DNA from: Candidatus Electrothrix sp. GW3-4
GTDB lineage: Bacteria > Desulfobacterota > Desulfobulbia > Desulfobulbales > Desulfobulbaceae
Length of the DNA stretch: 32,000 bases
Reading direction: 5' to 3'
Assembly: GCF_037902255.1 (NCBI RefSeq)
Contig: NZ_CP147990.1
Span: 2,790,001 to 2,822,000, forward strand
A program made the translations under genes and the position numbers. The notes beneath the pieces were generated by a model. The model saw only the letters and a list, made by a program, of their open reading frames with translations. It searched no databases and was not told the origin of the DNA. Shown in pieces: positions 3,001 to 21,534 of the stretch; the first letter of the stretch is position 1, and every line of letters begins with the position of its first letter.

Positions 3001-4534
3001 CGCGCACTCTCCTCAGCAGGTCCTTAACAGTCTGGGCACTGAAGACAAAGAGCTCTGTGTGCTGGTAATCTGCCAGCAACTTTTGTTCACGGATTGCAGG
3101 CATGAGCTTGGGTGAAGGCGGATCACCCGAGGCAAGGGCAAGATGCGAGTTAATACCGCCAAAGCCCATGCCTGAGACACCGGCCCGGAGGGTTTCCTGC
3201 GGGGGGCAAACTTCTCCGTGCAGAAGAGGATAGAGCCCTGTTGCCCTGTCGGCAAAAATGGGATTGGGGGTAAAACAATTGGCAAGGGGGGGAAGGATGC
3301 GTTGATTCAGGGCGATCACGGTTTTGATCAGGCCACCAACTCCTGAGGCCGCCTTGGTATGACCGATGAGCGATTTCAATGAGGTCATCCCGCAACGACG
3401 CAGCTCCATCGGCCTGCCCGCCTTGTCCCTTGTGTTCGTTCCCATGGCCAGAGCTATCCCCTCCAGCTCAATTTTATCGCCAACAGCGGTACCGGTTCCG
3501 TGCCCTTCTATGAAATCGAGATCCTGCATATTCCAACCCGCCCGTTCATAGGCCCGCTGCAAGGCCCTGGCCTGGCCTTGGGCGTTAGGGGCTGTTAAAC
3601 CACCTTTTCCATCCGAGGAAATACCCCAGCCGTGGAGTACAGCATAGACATAATCGCCATCAGCAACAGCGTCCTCCAGGCGTTTCATCACCACAAAGCC
3701 ACAGCCTTCCCCAGGGATAAATCCATTGGCCCTGCGATCATAGACCCGCATATCCTCGGTGGCCAGAGCAGCAGTTTTGGCAAAGCCGACCAGCTCAAAG
3801 GTGTCCAGACTGATATCCACCCCGCCTGCCAAGGCCAGATCCAGATCCCGGTTCATAAGATGTGTTGCAGCGGTTGCTGCCGCAATGATCGAAGAAGAGC
3901 AGGCCCCGTCAACGGTGTAGCCGCCCCCATGCAGGTCAAGATAATTACAGATTCTTCCAGCAATGGTATTGGACAGGGCGCCAGCCAGGGTATCTTCGGT
4001 GATCGGCGTAAAGACAGACTTATAATAGGCCTCTGCTGTACTGAGCAAGGCAGAGGTCTGCTCCGCAGACAACCCCTTTTTCAAGGCAGCTTTTTCGACG
4101 ACTCGTCGGACAAAAGGCCATCGAAGACGCAGGCCCTCAGCCCGGGAATGTTCCCCGGTCAAGGTGTTCCCGAGAATGACCCCTGTTCGTTCCTTGGGTA
4201 CGGCTTCTTTACTCAAACCTACGTCGTCCAACGAGGCAAGGGCAACCTTGAGGGCCAGCCAGTGGACGATATCGGCGGATTCAAAGGTTGAACGAGGAAT
4301 ACGATACTGGGCAGGATCAAAAGAAAACCCATCAACCAACCCGGCCTGACGACAATATGTTGTCTCTGGTGCAGCAGGATCAGGATCATAATAATCTGCC
4401 AAGGATAAACGGGTATCTGGAAAAGGACGAAACTGACGCCTTCTCGTCAAGATATTTTCCCAAAAAGCGCGAAGGTCCTGTGCGCCCGGATAATGGCAGG
4501 CCATACCGACAATGGCAATCAATGTTGAATTCAT
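1..4534 (-). CDS. Type I PKS / PUFA-synthase PfaA-like megasynthase, domain order KS-AT-ACP-KR; 3' end runs off the window
   Basis: Absent from the ORF track, apparently because it has no stop in the window. The minus frame from ATG 4534 is stop-free to position 1, and no other ORF is listed in that frame. My translation starts MNSTLIAIVGMACHYPGA. KS active site is TVDGACSSS (Cys codon 3899-3901) with GHTKAASG later. AT motifs are FPGQGSQ, GGHSLGE (Ser codon 2445-2447) and AFHS. ACP motif is LNLDSIK (Ser codon 1238-1240). KR Rossmann motif is ILATGGAKGIT (353-376). Confidence 0.9.
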   Translation of the reverse strand, partial: MNSTLIAIVGMACHYPGAQDLRAFWENILTRRRQFRPFPDTRLSLADYYDPDPAAPETTYCRQAGLVDGFSFDPAQYRIPRSTFESADIVHWLALKVALASLDDVGLSKEAVPKERTGVILGNTLTGEHSRAEGLRLRWPFVRRVVEKAALKKGLSAEQTSALLSTAEAYYKSVFTPITEDTLAGALSNTIAGRICNYLDLHGGGYTVDGACSSSIIAAATAATHLMNRDLDLALAGGVDISLDTFELVGFAKTAALATEDMRVYDRRANGFIPGEGCGFVVMKRLEDAVADGDYVYAVLHGWGISSDGKGGLTAPNAQGQARALQRAYERAGWNMQDLDFIEGHGTGTAVGDKIELEGIALAMGTNTRDKAGRPMELRRCGMTSLKSLIGHTKAASGVGGLIKTVIALNQRILPPLANCFTPNPIFADRATGLYPLLHGEVCPPQETLRAGVSGMGFGGINSHLALASGDPPSPKLMPAIREQKLLADYQHTELFVFSAQTVKDLLRRVRAAEDLARNICEGERLDLAAHLTTLYGHNTTCGPVRAALSAESPEMLLGALANLAHILCTAPPKEQRIFFDPQAGICIGNDVQNPRVGFLFPGQGSQKINMGRQLVQRHDWAEAIVQKMERALGWSEGQQLSDIIFRPLERALDLAHVTHWQEQLKQTEVAQPALCLASMLRLEQLARLGLQPDVVGGHSLGELTAFYAAGAYSREELIRFAALRGQAMAPRQGHAGTMASLACSAAQAQALLDAGQGYAVVANRNSPSQTVISGEVACVEQACRSAKEQGIRGVLLPVANAFHSRFVSRAAQTLAESRVLPEQPRELTTALFTGLQGRQIELDCDLRRHFSAQVTSPVDFMALVQEMGKECDLLLEVGPGRVLTGLAHKTLAINDEGLVPSCFPLETEPEQDRDLNLFLANYFVRGGTINWHALYADRLIRPFTPVDERVFLSNPCELPFAEQKDEASPSATVPLSEQGNFGETDRLLAESAGISQEKLAAYLGQRSRFLGDLIRVDLDNLVSLGPVPVPSDSPRKLIPIHPLPALSEKKVPGVDERAEGEKISCADLLVTLIAERTGFPPESLSMDLRLLDDLNLDSIKASELLFEAASQAGVAAAKLNVFEYANATLQELTELLDREPEQPLEDIAENNSPRYPGWVRDFILQYLPEALPEDVAGHDLLPWEEEVLILFEPTERPLAEQLEGVLHRFTVKVELIPFLDARQTIASLLTRFTYVIALLPQQESDESLDQQALADQVIRLHTIFSPSFHRTGGANQMLAVVQIGDGFFGDGPLKVNIRRCSAKALAASYHLEQPDLKVRVLDFSPQIAADKLCEYILLELGTAEHYAAVGYAADQIRRVPRPVVRNIAADQARPIPWSSKDVILATGGAKGITAECVLAFARATGVQLALVGSSSPAMRNEQQDEILSTLKRANEAGLSAHYYQCDVTDTEAVKRLVRQVENEQGTISGVIHGSALNRPGELCHVSVGQALEEIQPKIIGAMNLCTALHD

Positions 4535-13557: not shown

Positions 13558-13673
13558 ACCCCCTTCGGGGTAGGGATATTGCAGGACGTTAACAATATGC
13601 CCAGATCCCTGAGCAGGATAAAACCCGAGCCCTGAAAGGGTTCAGGGCTAATAGCCCAAGGTCATCACCTTGG
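13558..13673 (+). repeat. Diverged copy (A) of the multi-hairpin repeat family, 22 nt upstream of DGR target 1
   Basis: Shares three hairpin modules with copies B and C. These are cccc(c)ttcgggg, ccctgaaaggg (extended here to agccctgaa/ttcagggct) and cccaaggtcatcaccttgg. The last stem carries a compensatory g>a / c>t pair relative to cccagggtcaccaccctgg. Confidence 0.6.
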
Positions 13674-13694
13674 TGTATACAATTTATAACCGTC

Positions 13695-14426
13695 ATGCAT
13701 AACGAAGAACCTACCATCCAACTCCCCTCCGGCCCGGTTATTGAACTGAGGTACGTCCAGGGCGGAAAATTTATGATGGGGGATGACAAAAGTGAATATG
13801 GTGACGAGAAGCCTGCCCATCCGGTCAGACTGTCAGATTTTTACCTCGGCAAGTTCCCGGTCACTCAGGAGGTCTGGCAGGCAGTAATGAATAACAATCC
13901 CTCCAGCTTTAAAGGTGAACACCGTCCGGTGGAAACTGTCTCCTGGGAAGATGCACAGGAGTTTCTTGCCCGGCTCAATCAGCAGACCGGCAGGGTCTTT
14001 CGTCTGCCTACAGAAGCGGAATGGGAATACGCGGCCCAAGGCGGCAGGCACAGTGAGGGGTATATCTATGCAGGCAGCGATCGATTGAAACAGGTGGGCT
14101 GGTATGAGAAAAACAGCGGCGATGAGACCCATGAGGTCGGTCTGCTGTATGACAATGAACTGGGCCTGTACGACATGAGCGGCAATGTCTGGGAGTGGTG
14201 TCAGGACTGGTTTTCCAAGGAATACTACGTAGCATGCCATCAACAGGGAACCGTGGACAATCCCCAGGGGCCTGACACCGGGTCGTACCGCGTTCTGCGC
14301 GGCGGCGGCTGGATCTACTACCCGGTGGGCTGCCGTTCCATCTATCGGAGCAGCAACCCGCCGGTGTATCGGCACCACCACATCGGCTTCCGCCTTGCCC
14401 TCCCCTCCCAGTCAGCTGGAAGCTAA
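13695..14426 (+). CDS. DGR target protein 1, FGE-sulfatase (SUMF1) / C-type-lectin-fold domain protein
   Basis: 243 aa. RLPTEAEWEYAAQGG, NVWEWCQDW and the C-terminal RVLRGGGW....GFRLA are hallmarks of the FGE/CLec fold. No signal peptide. The last 44 codons are VR1. Confidence 0.92.
   Translation: MHNEEPTIQLPSGPVIELRYVQGGKFMMGDDKSEYGDEKPAHPVRLSDFYLGKFPVTQEVWQAVMNNNPSSFKGEHRPVETVSWEDAQEFLARLNQQTGRVFRLPTEAEWEYAAQGGRHSEGYIYAGSDRLKQVGWYEKNSGDETHEVGLLYDNELGLYDMSGNVWEWCQDWFSKEYYVACHQQGTVDNPQGPDTGSYRVLRGGGWIYYPVGCRSIYRSSNPPVYRHHHIGFRLALPSQSAGS
14280..14411 (+). repeat. DGR variable repeat VR1
   Basis: 132 nt aligned without gaps to TR (offset 1762). There are 13 mismatches, all at TR adenines: 16048, 16069, 16078, 16081, 16090, 16091, 16105, 16112, 16115, 16127, 16129, 16135 and 16141. 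Confidence 0.95.
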
Positions 14427-14531
14427 TCCTGGTTTCCCGTGAGCAAAAGAGCAAGCGAGTGGAGCAACGGCTGCAAAGAGGCGAGGGACGAGCCGACAGC
14501 AACCGCAGCGTAGCGAGGCGGCAAGGGGGGT

Positions 14532-14548
14532 TCGGGGCGCAGCCCCGA
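14532..14548 (+). other. GC-rich hairpin in the conserved post-VR1 segment
   Basis: tcggggc-gca-gccccga: 7-bp stem, 3-nt loop. An identical copy lies after VR2. Confidence 0.5.
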
Positions 14549-14573
14549 TGAATTTTTTATCGGATAAGCGACA

Positions 14574-15026
14574 ATGCAAATTAAACTTTTCACCATTCCA
14601 ATCCACGGAGGAGAGCAGCTCTGTGAAGCAATGAATCGATTTCTGCGTTCCAAAAAAATCCTCCAGACAGAAAGCCGTCTTGTGAGTACTGTCGAGGGAA
14701 GTTTCTGGTGCTTTTGCATCAGATATCTTGCCGAAAATCAGCAGACAGACAAGCGAAGAAAGATTGATTACCGTGCAGTATTGGACAGCGGCAGTTTTCA
14801 ACGTTTTGCCGCAATGCGGGAAATCCGAAAAAAACTGGCGCAGCAGGAGGGCATCCCGGCATACGCTGTCTTCACCGATGCCGAGCTGGCTGAACTGGCC
14901 CGGATTGAGCACCTTACCTTGGCGGATCTGCGCGGGGTGCATGGCATTGGCGCTGCCAAGGTGGAAAAATACGGAGCGCATTTCACCGCGCAGGAGAACA
15001 ATGAAACGGGCAAGCCGACTGCTTGA
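14574..15026 (+). CDS. DGR accessory protein with C-terminal HRDC domain
   Basis: 150 aa. FAAMREIRKKLAQQEGIPAYAVFTDAELAELARIEHLTLADLRGVHGIGAAKVEKYG matches the HRDC consensus of RecQ/RNase D. The ORF overlaps the RT start by 26 nt. Confidence 0.85.
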   Translation: MQIKLFTIPIHGGEQLCEAMNRFLRSKKILQTESRLVSTVEGSFWCFCIRYLAENQQTDKRRKIDYRAVLDSGSFQRFAAMREIRKKLAQQEGIPAYAVFTDAELAELARIEHLTLADLRGVHGIGAAKVEKYGAHFTAQENNETGKPTA

Positions 15027-16038
15027 GCGGATTGCCGAGCCTGACAATCTGCGCCTGGCCTTCTGGAAGGCCCGCAAGGGCAAAAGTCTGTCCACCCAGA
15101 TGCAGGCCTATCAAAACAGGTTGGAGCACAACCTGCTTCTCCTGCGGGGACAGATTTTGTCAGGAAAAATTTCAATCGGCGCGTACTCCTGCTTTGCAAT
15201 CCATGACCCCAAGAAACGACGGATCTGCGCGGCTCCGTTCACCGAGCAAGTGCTTCATCATGCCCTGATGAATGTCTGCCATTATCATTTTGAGACAAAG
15301 CAGATCTATGATAGCTATGCCAGCCGTCCCGGCAAAGGGACCCATGCCGCAGTCAGGCGGACGCAGATGTTCTCCGGCGCCTCTTCCTGGTTTCTCAAGC
15401 TGGATGTCCGCAAGTTTTTTGCCAGCATTCATCACGGCTGCCTGAAAGAGCAACTGAGGAGGATGTTCAAGGATCATCATTTGCTTGGTCTGCTGGATAC
15501 TATTATTGACAGCTATGAAGACAGCCCCGGGCGCGGCCTGCCGATCGGCAATCTGTCCAGTCAGTATTTTGCCAATCATTATCTGGCAGGACTTGATCAT
15601 TTTATCAAAGAGCAGCTCCGCTGTCGGGCATACATCCGCTACATGGACGATATGGTCCTGTGGCATAACGACAAGAAACGGCTGAAGGAATGGCATCATC
15701 AGATCAGGGAATTCGTGCGCAACAGGCTGCAATGCGAACTGAAGCCGATCCTGCTCAACCGGACGGAACACGGGGTCCCCTTTCTCGGCTACAGAATCTT
15801 TCCCTTTCATATTCGGCTGCTGCAACGAAGCAAGGCTCGATTTATCCGAAAAATGCGGTATATTGAGCGAAAGTACCAATCCGGCGCATGGAGCGAGCAG
15901 AACTGCCAACGGCACGCCCTGCCGCTTATCGCCTTTACCGCTCTCGCCAATGCCGAGGTCTTCAGAAGAGATGTGATGCAGCGATTGCAAAACGACAGGG
16001 CATCGGACGTGGAAAAAGGAGACGGTTCATTGTCATAA
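15001..16038 (+). CDS. DGR reverse transcriptase
   Basis: ATG 15001 is preceded by AGGAGA. Sequence features are MKRASRLLERIAEPDNLRLAFWKARKGK, LPIGNLSSQYFANHYL (the DGR-specific [I/L/V]GxxxSQ motif) and YIRYMDDMVLW (the catalytic YxDD box). The track start at 14728 is an upstream alternative-codon extension. Confidence 0.93.
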   Translation: MKRASRLLERIAEPDNLRLAFWKARKGKSLSTQMQAYQNRLEHNLLLLRGQILSGKISIGAYSCFAIHDPKKRRICAAPFTEQVLHHALMNVCHYHFETKQIYDSYASRPGKGTHAAVRRTQMFSGASSWFLKLDVRKFFASIHHGCLKEQLRRMFKDHHLLGLLDTIIDSYEDSPGRGLPIGNLSSQYFANHYLAGLDHFIKEQLRCRAYIRYMDDMVLWHNDKKRLKEWHHQIREFVRNRLQCELKPILLNRTEHGVPFLGYRIFPFHIRLLQRSKARFIRKMRYIERKYQSGAWSEQNCQRHALPLIAFTALANAEVFRRDVMQRLQNDRASDVEKGDGSLS

Positions 16039-16041
16039 AAG

Positions 16042-16173
16042 GGGTCGAACCGCGTTCTGCGCGGCGGCAGCTGGATCAACAACCCGGTGAACTGCCGTTC
16101 CATCAATCGGAACAACAACCCGCCGGAGAATCGGAACCACAACATCGGCTTCCGCCTTGCCCTCCCCTCCCAG
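16042..16173 (+). repeat. DGR template repeat (TR)
   Basis: Starts 4 nt after the RT stop. It contains 29 adenines, mostly in AAC/AAT codons when read in the VR frame (GSNRVLRGGSWINNPVNCRSINRNNNPPENRNHNIGFRLALPSQ). The 3' part (16145-16171) is adenine-free and identical in TR, VR1 and VR2. Confidence 0.95.
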
Positions 16174-16272
16174 CTCACGGGAAAGCCGGATAGCTTCCAC
16201 TGAACAGACAATGATCCTGTTCCCGGCCTGGACGGCGGGACAAAAAGGCAGCCGGGTTGCCGGTTGCATCAG

Positions 16273-16318
16273 GCGGCAGTGTCAGTAGCCCTGGGCGAAA
16301 GCTCTGCCGCTGTTTTTC
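16273..16318 (+). terminator. Candidate intrinsic terminator / 3' structure of the RT-TR transcript
   Basis: gcggcag (16273-16279) pairs with ctgccgc (16304-16310), with an inner agc/gct pairing, followed by tgtttttc. An 8-bp hairpin gcagccgg-gttg-ccggttgc lies just upstream at 16248-16267. Confidence 0.4.
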
Positions 16319-16338
16319 ATCAGACAAAGGATAGCGTG

Positions 16339-17070
16339 ATGGACAACGACAATCTTATCATCCAACTCCCCTCCGGCCCGGTTATTGAACTGAGGTACGT
16401 CCAGGGCGGAAAATTTATGATGGGGGATGACAACGCGAAAGACGATAACGAGAAACCGGCTCATCCGGTCAGACTGTCAGATTTTTACCTCGGCAAGTTC
16501 CCGGTCACTCAGGAGGTCTGGCAGGCAGTAATGAATAACAATCCCTCCAGCTTTAAAGGTGAACACCGTCCGGTGGAAACTGTCTCCTGGGAAGATGCAC
16601 AGGAGTTTCTTGCCCGGCTCAATCAGCAGACCGGCAGGGTCTTTCGTCTGCCTACAGAAGCGGAATGGGAATACGCGGCCCAAGGCGGCAGGCACAGTGA
16701 GGGGTATATCTATGCAGGCAGCGATCGATTGAAACAGGTGGGCTGGTATGAGAAAAACAGCGGCGATGAGACCCATGAGGTCGGTCTGCTGTATGACAAT
16801 GAACTGGGCCTGTACGACATGAGCGGCAATGTCTGGGAGTGGTGTCAGGACTGGTTTTCCAAGGAATACTACGTAGCATGCCATCAACAGGGAACCGTGG
16901 ACAATCCCCAGGGGCCTGACACCGGGTCGCACCGCGTTCTGCGCGGCGGCAGCTGGCTCAGCTACCCGGTGGACTGCCGTTCCATCGATCGGCTCATCAG
17001 CCCGCCGGAGTATCGGGACCACGACCTCGGCTTCCGCCTTGCCCTCCCCTCCCAGTCAGCTGGAAGCTAA
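16339..17070 (+). CDS. DGR target protein 2, FGE-sulfatase / C-type-lectin-fold domain protein (paralog of target 1)
   Basis: 243 aa from ATG 16339 (MDNDNLIIQLPSGPV). The protein is identical to target 1 between HPVRLSDFY and GPDTGS. The C-terminus is VR2. The track start at 16264 is an unsupported extension. Confidence 0.92.
   Translation: MDNDNLIIQLPSGPVIELRYVQGGKFMMGDDNAKDDNEKPAHPVRLSDFYLGKFPVTQEVWQAVMNNNPSSFKGEHRPVETVSWEDAQEFLARLNQQTGRVFRLPTEAEWEYAAQGGRHSEGYIYAGSDRLKQVGWYEKNSGDETHEVGLLYDNELGLYDMSGNVWEWCQDWFSKEYYVACHQQGTVDNPQGPDTGSHRVLRGGSWLSYPVDCRSIDRLISPPEYRDHDLGFRLALPSQSAGS
16924..17055 (+). repeat. DGR variable repeat VR2
   Basis: 132 nt aligned without gaps to TR (offset 882). There are 14 mismatches, all at TR adenines: 16048, 16075, 16079, 16081, 16090, 16105, 16111, 16112, 16115, 16118, 16129, 16135, 16141 and 16144. 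Confidence 0.95.
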
Positions 17071-17172
17071 TCCTGGTTTCCCGTGAGCAAAAGAGCAAGC
17101 GAGTGGAGCAACGGCTGCAAAGAGGCGAGGGACGAGCCGACAGCAACCGCAGCGTAGCGAGGCGGCAGGGGT

Positions 17173-17189
17173 TCGGGGCGCAGCCCCGA
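17173..17189 (+). other. GC-rich hairpin in the conserved post-VR2 segment
   Basis: The same tcggggc-gca-gccccga hairpin as at 14532-14548. Confidence 0.5.
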
Positions 17190-17258
17190 TGAATTTTTCT
17201 TCTCACGAATGGGTGGTATGAATCAGCTCAGAATCGTCACCCTGGTTATCCAACCGAT

Positions 17259-17381
17259 GCTTGGGATGGTATCCCAAGCTGAGATGCAGAACCCCTGCGG
17301 GGTAACGGGCAGGTGCTACATCCGAACCAAGCAAAGGAACCCTGAAAGGGTTCCTGATATCAGCCCAGGGTCACCACCCTG
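17259..17381 (+). repeat. Multi-hairpin repeat copy B, 36 nt upstream of the Y1 transposase gene
   Basis: Hairpins in order: gcttgggat-ggt-atcccaagc, cccc-tgc-gggg, gaaccct-gaa-agggttc and cccaggg-tcacca-ccctg. By eye about 85-90 percent identical to copy C, in the same orientation. Confidence 0.75.
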
Positions 17382-17416: not shown

Positions 17417-17872
17417 ATGCCGCAATCACTGAGCAGGATCTTTCTCCATCTCATCTTTTCGACCAGGAAACGAATCCCCTTCCTTGTTGATGCCGAACTG
17501 CGCGACCATACCCATGCCTATCTCGCTGAGGTCTGCCGTCAGTTGGGGGTACTGCCTCTCCGTATCAACGGCACGGAAGATCATGTCCATATCCTCTGCG
17601 CCATGTCCCGAACCCGGACTGTCGCCGATCTGGTCAAGGAGCTGAAGCGAACCTCGTCCAAATGGCTTAAGCAGCAGGGGGAAGAATTGCTCTGTTTCTA
17701 TTGGCAGGGCGGCTATGGCGCGTTTTCCGTCAGCCCGTCCCATGTCGATGAGGTGGAACGGTACATTGCCTGCCAGCCGGAGCACCATAAGACCCTATCG
17801 TTCCAGGATGAATTCCGACGGATTCTGAAAAAATACGGAGTGCAATACGATGAACAATATGTCTGGGACTGA
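17417..17872 (+). CDS. IS200-like / REP-associated tyrosine transposase (RAYT, Y1 HUH family)
   Basis: 151 aa. It starts MPQSLSRIFLHLIFSTRKR, carries the HUH motif EDHVHIL and the catalytic-Tyr region YWQGGYGAFSV. Size and motifs fit IS200 TnpA/RAYT. Confidence 0.85.
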   Translation: MPQSLSRIFLHLIFSTRKRIPFLVDAELRDHTHAYLAEVCRQLGVLPLRINGTEDHVHILCAMSRTRTVADLVKELKRTSSKWLKQQGEELLCFYWQGGYGAFSVSPSHVDEVERYIACQPEHHKTLSFQDEFRRILKKYGVQYDEQYVWD

Positions 17873-17922: not shown

Positions 17923-18049
17923 GCTTGGGATGGTATCCCAAGCTGAGATACAGAACCCCCGCGGGGTAAAAAGGACAGGTGTCACATCCAAACCAAGCAG
18001 AGGAACCCTGAAAGGGTTCTGGAGATCAGCCCAGGGTCACCACCCTGGG
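17923..18049 (+). repeat. Multi-hairpin repeat copy C, 34 nt upstream of the Roco gene
   Basis: Same four hairpin modules as copy B. The track ORF 17930..20269 and ORF 17209..17490 both translate through the repeats (MVSQAEIQNP / MVSQAEMQNP). That explains their similar but spurious N-termini. Confidence 0.75.
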
Positions 18050-18082
18050 GGAATAAACACAACTCCTTCGGGGGTATATCTA

Positions 18083-20269
18083 ATGAACATCATCAAACCG
18101 ATAATCATCCAACAGATCGAAGAGCAGCTCCAGCTTACCCTGCAGCCTGCACCATCCCTGCCTACGCCCCTGCGCGGCCTGATGACCTATAAAGAAAATC
18201 AGCCCAAATACCTGCTGGACGAACAGGACCGGCTCATCGGCCTCAATCTGGCCGCAACCGAGCTGGATGATGCCCGCTGGCAGCAGATTGTCATCCTGCT
18301 GGATAAACATGGCGTTCAGCTCCAGGCCCTGAACCTGTGCGAGAATCAGTTAAAGGACTTTGTTCCGCCACCGGGCATTGCGGTCATGACCGATCTTGAC
18401 CTGGATGACAACCCGCTAGAATATCCATCACCGGAAACTGTTCAGCAAGGAAAAGCTGCTGTGCTTCGTTTCCTGCAAGTTGCCGCCGCCCAGGGTACAC
18501 GCGAGGCCTTTGAAGTCAAAATGCTCATTGTCGGCGAAGGCGAGACCGGCAAGACCACGCTCTGGAACCTACTCCAGACCCCTGACCATCCAGTGCCGGA
18601 TGAGGACCAAAAAAGAACGGTCGGTATCCAGATCAAAGAAGGCTGGGAGTTCCCCCATCTCGACCATCCAGACACCCCGTTCTTTATCAATCTCTGGGAT
18701 TTCGGCGGCCAGGAGATCCAATACATGACCCACCAGTTCTTCCTCACCCGCCGCTCCTTCTATGTGCTGCTTGCCGACGGGAGAAAGGAGGCTGCCAATT
18801 TTTCCTATTGGCTGGACATCATCAGCCTGCTGGGCCGCGACCCGGATCAGGACGGCAGATTACCTTTGCTGGTGGTTGTGAATGAAAAGGGCAATACAAA
18901 CCCAACCCTTCCCTACGATTCCAACACGGTGAAGGAACAGTATCCCGGCCTGGAGATCATCAGAAAGCATATTGACTTTGCCGAGAAAGGCGGACGGCTT
19001 GATGATCTGCGGGATAAAATCAAAAAGATCCTCTGCCGCAATATCGCCCACCTGCCGATCACCATTCCCAAGCTCTGGGACGAGGTACGGAATGAACTCA
19101 AGGTACTGCGGCAGGAGGTCAACCATATTGACCACCAGAAGTTCTTGGATATCTGCAACCGGCACGGCATCAGCGACCGCCAGCAGCAGGACGACCTGAG
19201 CCAATTCTTCCATGACCTCGGGCTGATCCTCCATTTTCACGAAGGAATATTGGAAGATTTTATTGTTCTCAATCCAAGCTGGGCGGTGAACGCGATCTAT
19301 ACCATCTTGGAAAGCGAGGATGCCACATATAATCAGGGCCGTTTCAACCAAGAGGTCCTTAAATCTATTTGGAACAAAAAGGGCTTCTCCATTGCCGAAC
19401 AGGGCAAGCTGCTCAACCTGATGCTGAAGGACGGGCTGGAGGTCTGCTTCAAAGCCAAAGAGCAGGGCGATGAAATCTTCATTGCGCCCCAGCTCTTGCC
19501 CGAGGAGGCCCCTGAAGAGGCGCAATGGGAGGATAGCCCGGAGACCCTGCGCTACATCTATCATTACCCCTTTATGCCCAAGGGATTGATCGGGCGGCTG
19601 ATTGTTCGCCTGCATGAGGACATCGAAGACTGCTGCGACACGGATCAATGTCATCTGGACTGCCGAAAGATGGTCTGGAAAAATGGTATGTATCTGCGTA
19701 AAGCCCACTGCCGGGCACGGGTGCGTTATATCAATGACCGCAAGCAGGGACGGGAGATTATCCAGCTTGAGGTACAGGGGCCGGAGGTTGAAGATCGTCG
19801 ATATGTTTTGCGAGATATCCGGGAAGAATTAGAAGAAATACACAAGAAGCCCTTTTCCTCACTGCGTTTCTTTGAGAAGATCCCCTGCTGCTGCGATGAG
19901 TGCAAAAAATCCGTCATGCCCCATGAATACGACAAGGACGACCTGCAACGGATGAAGAAAAAGGATGTCGAGGAAATGCGCTGTATGCAGAGCGGCATGA
20001 ACGTCCCGATCCGCCAGCTTTTGGATGGGGTGTTTCAGGAAAGGGAACTTTGTGCGGAGCCGAAGCTACAGGAAAGCAGCACACCGGTGACAGTAAACGT
20101 TTATGCCAACCAGCATAAAGAATCATCGGGTGAATCAGCTGATGCCAGCAAGAAGCCTTGGTGGAAACGCTGGTGGCTTGGTATCGTCGGAGTTCTTGGG
20201 GCTATCGGGGTAGTTCTTGCCAACTTGGTGAAGATTATAGAGGCGATAGAAAAATTCCTTGGCCCATAA
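18083..20269 (+). CDS. Roco-type GTPase: LRR - Roc (Ras-like GTPase) - COR, with a C-terminal Cys cluster and TM anchor
   Basis: 728 aa from ATG 18083 (MNIIKPIIIQQ). LRR-like units include LQALNLCENQL and LDLDDNPLEYP. The P-loop is IVGEGETGKTTL and the switch II motif is WDFGGQE. The long following region is consistent with a COR domain. It ends with PCCCDECKK and KKPWWKRWWLGIVGVLGAIGVVLANLV. Confidence 0.8.
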   Translation: MNIIKPIIIQQIEEQLQLTLQPAPSLPTPLRGLMTYKENQPKYLLDEQDRLIGLNLAATELDDARWQQIVILLDKHGVQLQALNLCENQLKDFVPPPGIAVMTDLDLDDNPLEYPSPETVQQGKAAVLRFLQVAAAQGTREAFEVKMLIVGEGETGKTTLWNLLQTPDHPVPDEDQKRTVGIQIKEGWEFPHLDHPDTPFFINLWDFGGQEIQYMTHQFFLTRRSFYVLLADGRKEAANFSYWLDIISLLGRDPDQDGRLPLLVVVNEKGNTNPTLPYDSNTVKEQYPGLEIIRKHIDFAEKGGRLDDLRDKIKKILCRNIAHLPITIPKLWDEVRNELKVLRQEVNHIDHQKFLDICNRHGISDRQQQDDLSQFFHDLGLILHFHEGILEDFIVLNPSWAVNAIYTILESEDATYNQGRFNQEVLKSIWNKKGFSIAEQGKLLNLMLKDGLEVCFKAKEQGDEIFIAPQLLPEEAPEEAQWEDSPETLRYIYHYPFMPKGLIGRLIVRLHEDIEDCCDTDQCHLDCRKMVWKNGMYLRKAHCRARVRYINDRKQGREIIQLEVQGPEVEDRRYVLRDIREELEEIHKKPFSSLRFFEKIPCCCDECKKSVMPHEYDKDDLQRMKKKDVEEMRCMQSGMNVPIRQLLDGVFQERELCAEPKLQESSTPVTVNVYANQHKESSGESADASKKPWWKRWWLGIVGVLGAIGVVLANLVKIIEAIEKFLGP

Positions 20270-20750: not shown

Positions 20751-20916
20751 TCCAGCGGCGGATTACGCAGCCGGAATAACCAGCGCATAGCCTTGCAGAA
20801 CTCTGCTCTTTTCCTTTCTCCTTTCCTTCTTGTTTTTTCGTACAAAACACTTTACCCTTATAGTCATAGGTAACATCTGTTCCCAATTTCCCAAACATAC
20901 TGCTCTGGAGGATACC

Positions 20917-21534
20917 GTGGAGTTAGCACAACAGGAATGCTACACATGGCAGGATTACAGGAAAATGCCTGACAATGAACGTTACGAGCTGATATCCGGC
21001 ACCTTCTATGCCATGAGCCCGGCACCATCACGCTTTCATCAGGAAATCAGCATGGAGCTTGCCCGGCAACTCAGCAACTATCTTCTTGATCACTCCTGCT
21101 CGGTCTATCCTGCCCCCTTTGATGTCCGCCTTCCGACTGCCCATGAATCTTCCGACACAAGCACTACTGTGTTGCAACCAGATATCTCCATTATCTGTGA
21201 TGCGAAAAAACTGGATCAACACGGCTGTGTCGGTGCCCCGGACTTTATTGCTGAAATCAGCTCTCCTTCCACAGCTGCCCATGATAATATCACCAAAACA
21301 GCCCTCTATGAGCAGTTTGGAGTTCGAGAATATTGGATCATTCACCCGTTGGACAGGTTAGTCACGGTCCGCCTTCTCGGTCAGGACAACCTTTTTCTTC
21401 CGCCTCATATCCATGAGGGCAAAGGCATGCTCGCGTTGACCATACTCCCTGAACTTGAGATCGATCTGGACCTCCTGTTCCGAAGCATTACGCTCAACGA
21501 ACAGACTCTATTTTCCATAAAAAAAAGCGACTGA
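20917..21534 (+). CDS. Uma2 family (DUF820) endonuclease
   Basis: GTG 20917 is preceded by GGAGGA. Sequence features are YTWQDYRKMPDNERYELISGTFYAMSPAP, PDISIICD and APDFIAEISSPST....K...Y...GVREYWIIHP, the characteristic Uma2 pattern. Confidence 0.8.
   Translation: MELAQQECYTWQDYRKMPDNERYELISGTFYAMSPAPSRFHQEISMELARQLSNYLLDHSCSVYPAPFDVRLPTAHESSDTSTTVLQPDISIICDAKKLDQHGCVGAPDFIAEISSPSTAAHDNITKTALYEQFGVREYWIIHPLDRLVTVRLLGQDNLFLPPHIHEGKGMLALTILPELEIDLDLLFRSITLNEQTLFSIKKSD

Follow-up and report, generated by a model that had tools for sequence, protein, structure and literature searches.

Template repeat of an HRDC-type DGR in a cable bacterium: two paralogous targets and a flank complementarity that may mark them

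The 32-kb window, by which we mean the whole stretch of DNA that was analysed, is part of the chromosome of the cable bacterium Candidatus Electrothrix sp. GW3-4. The locus consists of a CLec/FGE-fold target gene, an HRDC accessory gene, a reverse transcriptase (RT) gene, a template repeat (TR) and a second target gene, in this order and all on the + strand. Its parts are as follows.

13695..14426, + strand: target gene 1, 243 aa, stand-alone CLec/FGE-sulfatase fold (Pfam FGE-sulfatase, E=1.6e-49); WP_339133307, an exact NCBI match
14280..14411, + strand: VR1, 13 mismatches to the TR, all on TR adenines
14412..14444, + strand: 3' flank of VR1, a putative docking site, 29/33 against the reverse complement of 16173-16204
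14532..14557, + strand: intrinsic-terminator-like hairpin and T-run after target 1
14574..15026, + strand: accessory gene, 150 aa (Pfam HRDC, E=2.7e-16)
15001..16038, + strand: DGR reverse transcriptase, 345 aa, WP_339133311 (RVT_1; motifs IGNLSSQYFAN and YMDD)
16042..16173, + strand: TR, with 29 adenines, 11 AAY codons and a final 28 nt that are nearly A-free
16173..16207, + strand: 3' flank of the TR, complementary to both VR flanks; it holds P1 and a conserved CUGAACAG
16174..16322, + strand: structured 3' element of the TR RNA, with P1, P2, an A-run, P3 and P4, then a U-run
16339..17070, + strand: target gene 2, a paralogue of target 1, 243 aa from the ATG at 16339; WP_339133315
16924..17055, + strand: VR2, 14 mismatches to the TR, all on TR adenines
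17056..17088, + strand: 3' flank of VR2, identical to the VR1 flank
17173..17198, + strand: intrinsic-terminator-like hairpin and T-run after target 2, the same as that of target 1

The first 26 nt of the RT gene lie within the accessory gene, and 165 nt of non-coding sequence separate the TR from target gene 2. Both targets have an FGE-sulfatase fold (E about 1e-49 to 1e-50) and carry the VR at the C-terminus, which is the placement that defines DGR targets, at the 3' end of a coding gene that is typically of CLec/FGE fold. Each VR ends 15 nt before the stop codon of its target, and the TAA of target 1 falls within the VR1 3' flank, 14412..14444. The window holds no further copy of the TR/VR repeat. 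The neighbouring genes encode CODH/ACS, CbiG and MMPL/LolA (housekeeping functions), an IS200-type transposase and a Roc-COR protein. No phage genes were seen among them, no VR was found in the Roc-COR gene, and an Rfam search of the repeat flanking the IS200-type element matched no family. The NCBI annotation gives the genes of the locus generic protein names only.

The TR is 132 nt long and is composed of 29 A, 50 C, 33 G and 20 T. A first-pass annotation of the window had counted 13 mismatches between the TR and VR1 and 14 between the TR and VR2, and a gap-free alignment gives the same numbers. All 27 of the 27 mismatches fall on TR adenines, as had been claimed; the 103 non-A positions are unchanged in VR1 and VR2 alike. 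The chance that every mismatch should land on an adenine is 2.1e-10 for VR1 and 2.8e-11 for VR2. The other counts of that annotation were also reproduced: the VRs both depart from the TR at nine positions, and 18 of the 29 TR adenines are substituted in VR1, VR2 or both. At six of the nine positions the two VRs have acquired different bases. The three peptide strings quoted in the annotation read exactly in frame 0. The boundaries of the repeat are exact at both ends. Identity between TR and VR stops at ...CCCAG, and the final 29 nt are the same in the TR and both VRs. Mismatches restricted to template adenines in this manner are the textbook signature of a DGR.

The TR is built such that its adenines recode the target without interrupting it, another property by which DGRs are recognized. 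All 29 adenines lie at codon position 1 or 2, with 22 of them in the 11 AAY codons, and no stop codon can be reached by substitution of a TR adenine. Up to 18 codons can be recoded, giving about 1.4e17 reachable proteins. Substitutions are concentrated in the AAY codons (23/44 vs 4/14 at other adenines).

The RT carries LPIGNLSSQYFAN and YMDD, the motifs by which a DGR-type RT is recognized, and the same start was called for it on an independent contig. It has 33% identity to BPP-1 Brt over 286 aa (E=3e-45); with the group II, retron, Drt and Abi RT models it stays far under the cut-offs. The NCBIfam model for group II RTs gives it 80 bits, where the cut-off is 300; the element does not belong to the group II introns. 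The accessory protein consists of an N-terminal beta-alpha-beta-beta domain (residues 1-52) and a RecQ-type HRDC domain. Its AF2 model has a pLDDT of 82.6, and the HRDC domain superimposes on that of E. coli RecQ with a TM score of 0.80. A search with the confidently modelled N-terminal domain gave no significant structural relative. No ORF from 4.3 to 22.8 kb has an Avd-like Pfam match; the accessory position is occupied by the HRDC protein and not by a BPP-1-type Avd. The cassette encodes no nuclease gene. An HRDC-domain gene inside the cassette is what defines the HRDC-type DGRs (Architecture C). The region at 16042-16173 is thus shown to be the TR of a DGR that is intact, chromosomal and of HRDC type, with two paralogous targets on either side of the HRDC-RT-TR cassette.

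The duplicated segment spans 13691-14557 and 16335-17198. The two target proteins share 90% amino-acid identity, differ only in the N-terminus and the VR, and belong to the same NCBI 90% cluster. The first-pass annotation had described the rest of the two genes as nearly identical. This holds for 13818-14285 and 14412-14523, where identity is 100%, but not for the first 41 codons, which contain 24 differences, clustered at 13694-13714 and 13790-13817. Since the differences are gathered in this N-terminal part and the genes are elsewhere identical, the paralogues are mosaic. Identity between the copies is complete over 468 nt ahead of the VRs and over 112 nt behind them; between these limits VR1 and VR2 differ at 15 of the 29 A-templated sites and at none of the 103 other sites. 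As read from these sequences, the 3' 700 nt of the paralogues were homogenised recently, by duplication or gene conversion, and at least one VR, probably both, would have been rewritten after that event.

Of the nine sites altered in VR1 as well as VR2, three have the same base in each, in keeping with independent draws (P=0.62). The number of doubly changed sites is slightly in excess (9 vs 6.3 expected, P=0.048), because substitutions prefer AAY codons. With identical sequence around the VRs and differences at A sites only, separate homing into each target is the simplest reading. The earlier description of the homing as "independent and probably recent" is therefore sustained in its first part, by the identical surroundings of the VRs and the base identities at the shared sites. 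Its second part has a relative meaning only: "recent" signifies later than the last gene conversion or duplication.

Look-ups with the exact HRDC and RT proteins gave a single match, a 1,645-nt Logan contig (L081) that is broken at the repeats. It spans HRDC-RT-TR and has a TR identical to that of GW3-4, with a 1-nt difference in the A-run just upstream of the TR. Two metagenome scans, with the VR flank and the A-free TR tail as queries, gave no match. A scan of genomes with the RT recovered 176 relatives, and 80 of these loci were examined. The HRDC gene lies directly upstream of the RT in 78 of the 80 and a target homologue is present in 77. In 72 of the 80 the TR directly follows the RT and A-specific VRs are found, in the layout target-HRDC-RT-TR. 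The HRDC-RT-TR clade that was sampled also has 480 HRDC homologues and is widespread, being found in Bacteroidota, Chlorobiota, cable bacteria and others.

The population test proposed in the first-pass annotation, that polymorphism should be confined to the adenine-templated positions while the TR stays invariant, was borne out in these relatives. Six pairs of closely related loci have TRs that are nearly identical, with differences at 8 of 787 positions; between the orthologous VRs of these pairs, 107 of 205 A sites differ vs 7 of 574 others. Family-wide, adenines located 21-125 nt from the TR end are substituted at about 50-60%, and non-A positions at <1%; adenines are scarce in the last 20 nt of the TR, which do not vary. 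As judged from these comparisons, the DGR family of related loci is active in nature.

The 150 nt that follow the TR are conserved among about 55 loci and appear to form a structured RNA. P1 is a short hairpin with a GGAU loop (16182-16196). It is followed by the conserved CUGAACAG motif (16200-16207), by P2 (16220-16241) and an A-run, by P3, a variable hairpin (16248-16267), and by P4, a long stem with conserved internal sequence (16272-16317) that runs into a U-run and gives the element a terminator-like end. When 43 TR-downstream sequences were aligned with MAFFT and folded with RNAalifold, P1 alone emerged. Helices P2-P4 were placed by hand on a 16-sequence subset and then counted. In these 16 sequences compensatory changes occur in 14 of 22 pairs and 93.7% of cells are paired, a level attained in 0 of 500 shuffles. 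An Rfam search of the TR RNA element matched no family. In BPP-1, the spacer RNA recruits the RT-Avd complex and primes in cis (PMC12875486, bioRxiv 2023.10.23.563531). By position and complexity the 3' element corresponds to this BPP-1 "spacer" RNA, from which it differs in sequence.

The flanks of the repeats showed an additional feature. The 30 nt following the TR, GCTCACGGGAAAGCCGGATAGCTTCCACTGA (16173-16203), are the reverse complement of the VR 3' flanks. The 33 nt after each VR, TCAGCTGGAAGCTAATCCTGGTTTCCCGTGAGC (14412-14444 and 17056-17088), agree with the reverse-complemented TR flank in 29 of 33 positions. The predicted energy of the duplex between the two flanks is -49.6 kcal/mol, compared with -15.2±3.2 for shuffles (z -10.8). 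The VR flank as ssDNA folds with -3.1 kcal/mol (z=0.19), and forms no stable hairpin and no GRNA loop; the GC-rich hairpin nearest to the VR is the terminator, 121 nt away.

The complementarity extends over the family. It has z>4 in 75 of 94 TR-VR pairs (about 80%) from 72 related loci, and the median score over the 94 pairs is 31.5 for the reverse complement vs 12 for the direct orientation. The match is locus-specific. The median is 34 within a locus vs 14 between loci, and a TR flank ranks its own VR first of about 90 in 39 cases and among the top four in 64. VRs that lie remote, 4-5 kb away, also carry the complementary flank. In two loci whose short VR flanks lack the hairpin, L018 and L057, just the two outer complementary segments remain, adjacent to each other. 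Helix A, the nine pairs that adjoin the TR end (14436-14444 in the VR1 flank), abuts the last TR base exactly and shows the strongest covariation: 92.7% of cells are paired, compared with 77% in shuffles and about 30% after sliding, and compensatory double changes occur in 8 of 9 pairs, with 0 of 500 shuffles reaching the observed value. For the VR-proximal helix B (14412-14423 in the VR1 flank), an ungapped register test gave own-locus and permuted means that were equal, which is uninformative given bulges of 1-2 nt. The gapped test that replaced it gave an own-locus mean of 7.6 vs 3.9 permuted (z=8).

Long complementarity is absent in 13 of 89 family pairs, most of which still show pure A-mutagenesis (L020, L035 and L003 among them); it is therefore common and not strictly required. 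Non-A mismatches are three times more frequent in VRs that lack the flank (Fisher P=5e-4), some of which look decayed. Among 50 BPP-1-like phage loci there is little flank complementarity (own 14.6 vs permuted 13.6), and the small signal is mostly the known pairing of primer and IMH. For BPP-1 itself the match is borderline: Sp 22-41 can pair with the VR hairpin in its 3' half, at a score that only equals the best of 200 shuffles. Since the BPP-1-like loci show no comparable signal, long flank complementarity is not general to DGRs.

The positions that deviate from Watson-Crick pairing indicate which strands pair. Written as paired sense strands, they comprise 74 of G:T type vs 5 of A:C type. 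The sense strands thus pair with each other, TR RNA with the target top strand or with mRNA. This asymmetry excludes cDNA and double-stranded DNA as the pairing partner, and makes a function as an inverted repeat at the level of dsDNA unlikely. Transcription of each target ends at a separate terminator, and the flanks of VR and TR therefore normally reside on different transcripts; a long-range intramolecular stem in a single operon transcript is unlikely for the same reason.

By analogy with known elements, we infer that the established DGR mechanism applies to the GW3-4 locus. The TR would be transcribed as the 3' part of the HRDC-RT transcript and the RT would copy the TR RNA into cDNA, with random bases inserted opposite adenines. 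The cDNA would then replace the VR at the 3' end of each target, recoding the ligand-binding surface and leaving the TR intact. Within this framework the flank complementarity suggests a docking step, in which the ~30-nt 3' flank of the TR RNA pairs with the DNA just 3' of the VR and marks the target, replacing the IMH and the GC-rich hairpin of BPP-1. We hold this to be a nearly even call, falling if anything slightly on the doubtful side. If cDNA is primed in cis just after the RNA flank, near CUGAACAG, RNA flank and cDNA would form one strand that is colinear with the bottom strand of VR plus flank, and the RNA-cDNA hybrid could anneal to the target top strand in the manner of an RNA-primed Okazaki fragment. 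The priming site for the cDNA was sought from the sequence and none was located. The TR itself would escape being a target, since the flank that follows it has the opposite orientation to that of a VR; in this way directionality would be explained without IMH/IMH* mismatches. Extended to the HRDC-RT-TR clade, the proposal is that a guide-like RNA of ~30 nt sets both target choice and directionality, such that any gene with a complementary flank could be a target. We regard this wider form as plausible, at somewhat less than an even chance. Several observations count against docking: BPP-1 tolerates exchange of the stem sequence that lies downstream of its VR (PMC3240598), some family pairs lack the long complementarity yet show pure A-mutagenesis, and the BPP-1 clade has no comparable signal.

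The complementarity could also serve other ends. It may act between RNAs, the flank of the TR transcript pairing with the 3' UTR of the target mRNA after the stop codon; the pairing would then serve to regulate the target mRNA, to process it, or to offer RNase III a site for trimming the TR RNA, and no cDNA would dock on DNA. Sense-strand pairing with a G:U-type bias (74 vs 5) fits RNA:RNA as well as RNA:ssDNA, and the VR flank is inside the transcribed region, before the terminator of each target. However, nothing known in DGR biology requires the target mRNA, whereas the sole cis element known to be needed is the target DNA directly 3' of the VR (PMC3240598). The colinearity of RNA flank plus cDNA with the bottom strand would also have to be a coincidence, and we consider a role between RNAs unlikely. 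The exact abutment of helix A on the last TR base, where covariation is greatest, would suit target-primed reverse transcription. Here the top strand would be nicked after ...CCCGTGAGC (14444 / 17088), and the 3'-OH, annealed to GCUCACGGG directly 3' of the TR, would prime cDNA into the TR and give a fold-back intermediate. A primer-binding site needs less than the whole 30 nt, though, and the complementarity includes helix B. In addition, BPP-1 makes its cDNA independently of the target, by priming in cis (PMC5703328; bioRxiv 2023.10.23.563531), and the cassette encodes no nuclease. Priming by the target is thus quite improbable.

Other alternatives concern the VR differences themselves, which might not record two discrete recent homing events. 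They could be old and spared by gene conversion, or represent the consensus of a population, as the source genome is a MAG and each VR could be the consensus of several variants. The 1-nt homopolymer discrepancy with the independent contig shows that the assembly is not error-free, and the paralogues are mosaic. Yet gene conversion would need to skip exactly the A-templated sites, and a mixed-population consensus would still imply DGR activity at both loci, leaving only a small chance for this view. That the repeats are ordinary paralogous ones, with an A bias due to chance or to mutation unrelated to reverse transcription, draws on the gene duplication and on nothing beyond it. It is opposed by a P of about 1e-10 per VR, by the intact DGR-type RT that adjoins the TR and by the same pattern in 72 related loci; the mismatch statistics, these loci and the VR divergence between relatives refute it, and we give it practically no credence. 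The best explanation overall, which we hold with high confidence, is an intact HRDC-type DGR to which the established mechanism would apply, with each VR rewritten separately and docking as a hypothesis within it.

Homing of the cDNA into the VR was still called "incompletely understood" in 2026 (PMC12875486). A rule of 30-nt pairing between RNA and target makes this step directly testable by compensatory mutagenesis. If true, it would be the first covariation-supported answer to the question of how DGR cDNA finds its target, and it would furnish a simple design rule for retargeting, with compact HRDC-type DGRs as tools for diversification in vivo. The DGR literature that was searched does not describe complementarity between TR flank and VR flank, so what is new here may be the clade-wide complementarity and, with it, a variant in the way the target is marked. 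The literature searched yielded no link between DGRs and cable bacteria, and within it the GW3-4 element is the first DGR found described for a cable bacterium.

The prototype BPP-1 DGR, with the order mtd-avd-TR-brt, shares many features with the GW3-4 locus. The RTs have the motifs IGxLxSQxFAN and YMDD in common at 33% identity, the gene of a CLec-fold target carries a VR of about 130 nt at its 3' end, template adenines are substituted at about 50%, the 3' end of TR and VR is A-free and invariant, and a structured RNA lies 3' of the TR. There are also differences. BPP-1 has Avd where GW3-4 has the HRDC protein, its TR is upstream of the RT instead of downstream, it does not share the arrangement of two target genes, and it is phage-borne whereas the GW3-4 DGR is chromosomal. 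A BPP-1-type IMH is recognized by a few VR/TR mismatches in the last ~21 nt, which set directionality; at GW3-4 the TR and VRs are identical to the last base. BPP-1 also has, 4-34 bp after the VR, a GC-rich hairpin or cruciform of 7-10 bp with a GRNA loop (Guo 2011; MyDGR criteria), and GW3-4 has none at that position. Conversely, the 30-nt flank complementary to the TR flank in GW3-4 is absent from the 50 BPP-1-like loci.

The GW3-4 locus falls among the HRDC DGRs of Architecture C (Wu et al. 2018, PMC5758913), exemplified by Treponema denticola (PMC4891356). These too have a small HRDC gene that overlaps the RT in another frame and targets of CLec/FGE fold, and multiple targets can occur. 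The Treponema order is TR-HRDC-RT, in contrast to HRDC-RT-TR in GW3-4, and IMH-like mismatches are reported at its VR/TR 3' ends (PMC4891356), which are identical in GW3-4. The survey of Wu et al. 2018 listed only 14 HRDC DGRs (PMC5758913), compared with >170 RT relatives in genomes for the clade sampled here.

A hybrid RNA-cDNA, Okazaki-fragment model of homing was proposed for BPP-1 by Naorem et al. 2017 (PMC5703328). In that model the RNA primer still attached to the cDNA pairs with the target at the VR 3' end and sets directionality, and the flank geometry of GW3-4 fits it exactly. The BPP-1 pairing comprises about 9-13 nt with the IMH, lies within the repeat and is backed by mutagenesis of one element (PMC5703328); that of the GW3-4 type comprises about 30 nt, lies outside the repeat and has covariation across about 60 loci, a sequence-level result, as its support. 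The retrohoming of group II introns (EBS/IBS) resembles the proposed docking in its working only, in that an RT-associated RNA selects a DNA target by covarying Watson-Crick pairing. Unlike these introns, the GW3-4 locus has no ribozyme, reverse splicing or endonuclease domain. The DGRs of multicellular bacteria (Dore et al., bioRxiv 2023.09.22.558884), reported with no mention of cable bacteria or HRDC accessory genes, are like that of GW3-4 in being chromosomal, in having a filamentous host and short CLec-only targets, and in an adjoining NTPase gene of the "conflict-system" type, which in GW3-4 is the Roc-COR gene.

The target sites of the loci related to this DGR are not all built alike. 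In most of them the ~30 nt 3' of the TR and the ~30 nt 3' of the VR are mutually reverse-complementary. Some related loci have VR flanks that lack this complementarity to the TR flank, for example L001 (6368-6497) and L020 (3960-4104 and 10521-10665). One VR with a non-complementary flank has a decayed appearance, with four of its 20 mismatches at non-A positions. In its place L020 has its own hairpin, which is long and perfect, and two further loci, L018 and L057, keep only two outer segments of the complementary flank. Several target-site architectures therefore exist side by side in the clade.

The prototype DGR of phage BPP-1 (L083:2743-2886, 3353-3442) was also compared. Nucleotides 22-41 of the spacer RNA, the RNA 3' of its TR (CUUGGCGGGCUGGCCUUUC), show complementarity to part of the DNA hairpin downstream of the VR, namely its loop and 3' arm, which agrees with the known primer-IMH pairing of this phage. 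The complementarity score ties with the top shuffle out of 200 but does not exceed it, and the match is not conserved among 50 related phage loci.

The two target paralogues are mosaic. They differ at 24 positions, some of them synonymous, in two short patches within the first 41 codons:

13694-13714, first divergent patch, target gene 1
13790-13817, second divergent patch, target gene 1
16338-16358, first divergent patch, target gene 2
16434-16461, second divergent patch, target gene 2

The remaining ~700 nt show no differences except in the VRs. Such a pattern suggests gene conversion between the two copies. Within the VRs, changes at the 11 AAY codons of the TR are uneven. With both VRs pooled, the first adenine is changed in 16 of 22 cases and the second in 7 of 22, an excess that could come from selection on the encoded residues or from a sequence-context effect of the RT.

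The A-run that separates the RT stop codon from the TR reads AAAA in the window (16037-16041) but AAAAA in the independent contig L081 (1510-1514). Either one of the assemblies has a sequencing error in this homopolymer or the polymorphism is real. Many short-read contigs with homologues of the HRDC gene, L081 among them, are 1.6-1.75 kb long, which is exactly the length of the HRDC-RT-TR unit. The match indicates that assemblies break at the TR/VR repeats, and metagenomes probably under-detect the DGRs of this clade. Residues 1-52 of the HRDC accessory protein (14574-14732) form a conserved β-α-β-β domain, modeled with pLDDT above 90, that belongs to no Pfam family and lacks a significant fold match in the PDB. 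The protein may bind RNA or a junction through this N-terminal domain.

Genes downstream of target gene 2 include:

17417-17872, IS200/IS605 Y1 transposase
17930-20269, Roc-COR GTPase protein, probably with a membrane segment at its C-terminus, just downstream of the DGR
20830-21534, Uma2-family endonuclease, just downstream of the DGR

Neither the Roc-COR nor the Uma2 gene contains a VR. With these two genes beside it, the Electrothrix DGR has surroundings similar to the "conflict-system" neighbourhoods that have been described around DGRs in multicellular bacteria. The transposase gene is flanked on both sides by a ~125-nt direct repeat (17259-17381 and 17923-18047, 88-96% identical), each copy with three or four short hairpins. 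Rfam has no family for these repeats; they could represent the ends of the IS, a MITE-like element or a small RNA. The Roc-COR ORF start at 17930 falls within the second copy and is probably too far upstream. One repeat hairpin, GAaCCCTGAAAGGGTTC, occurs a third time at 13627-13643, just upstream of target gene 1.
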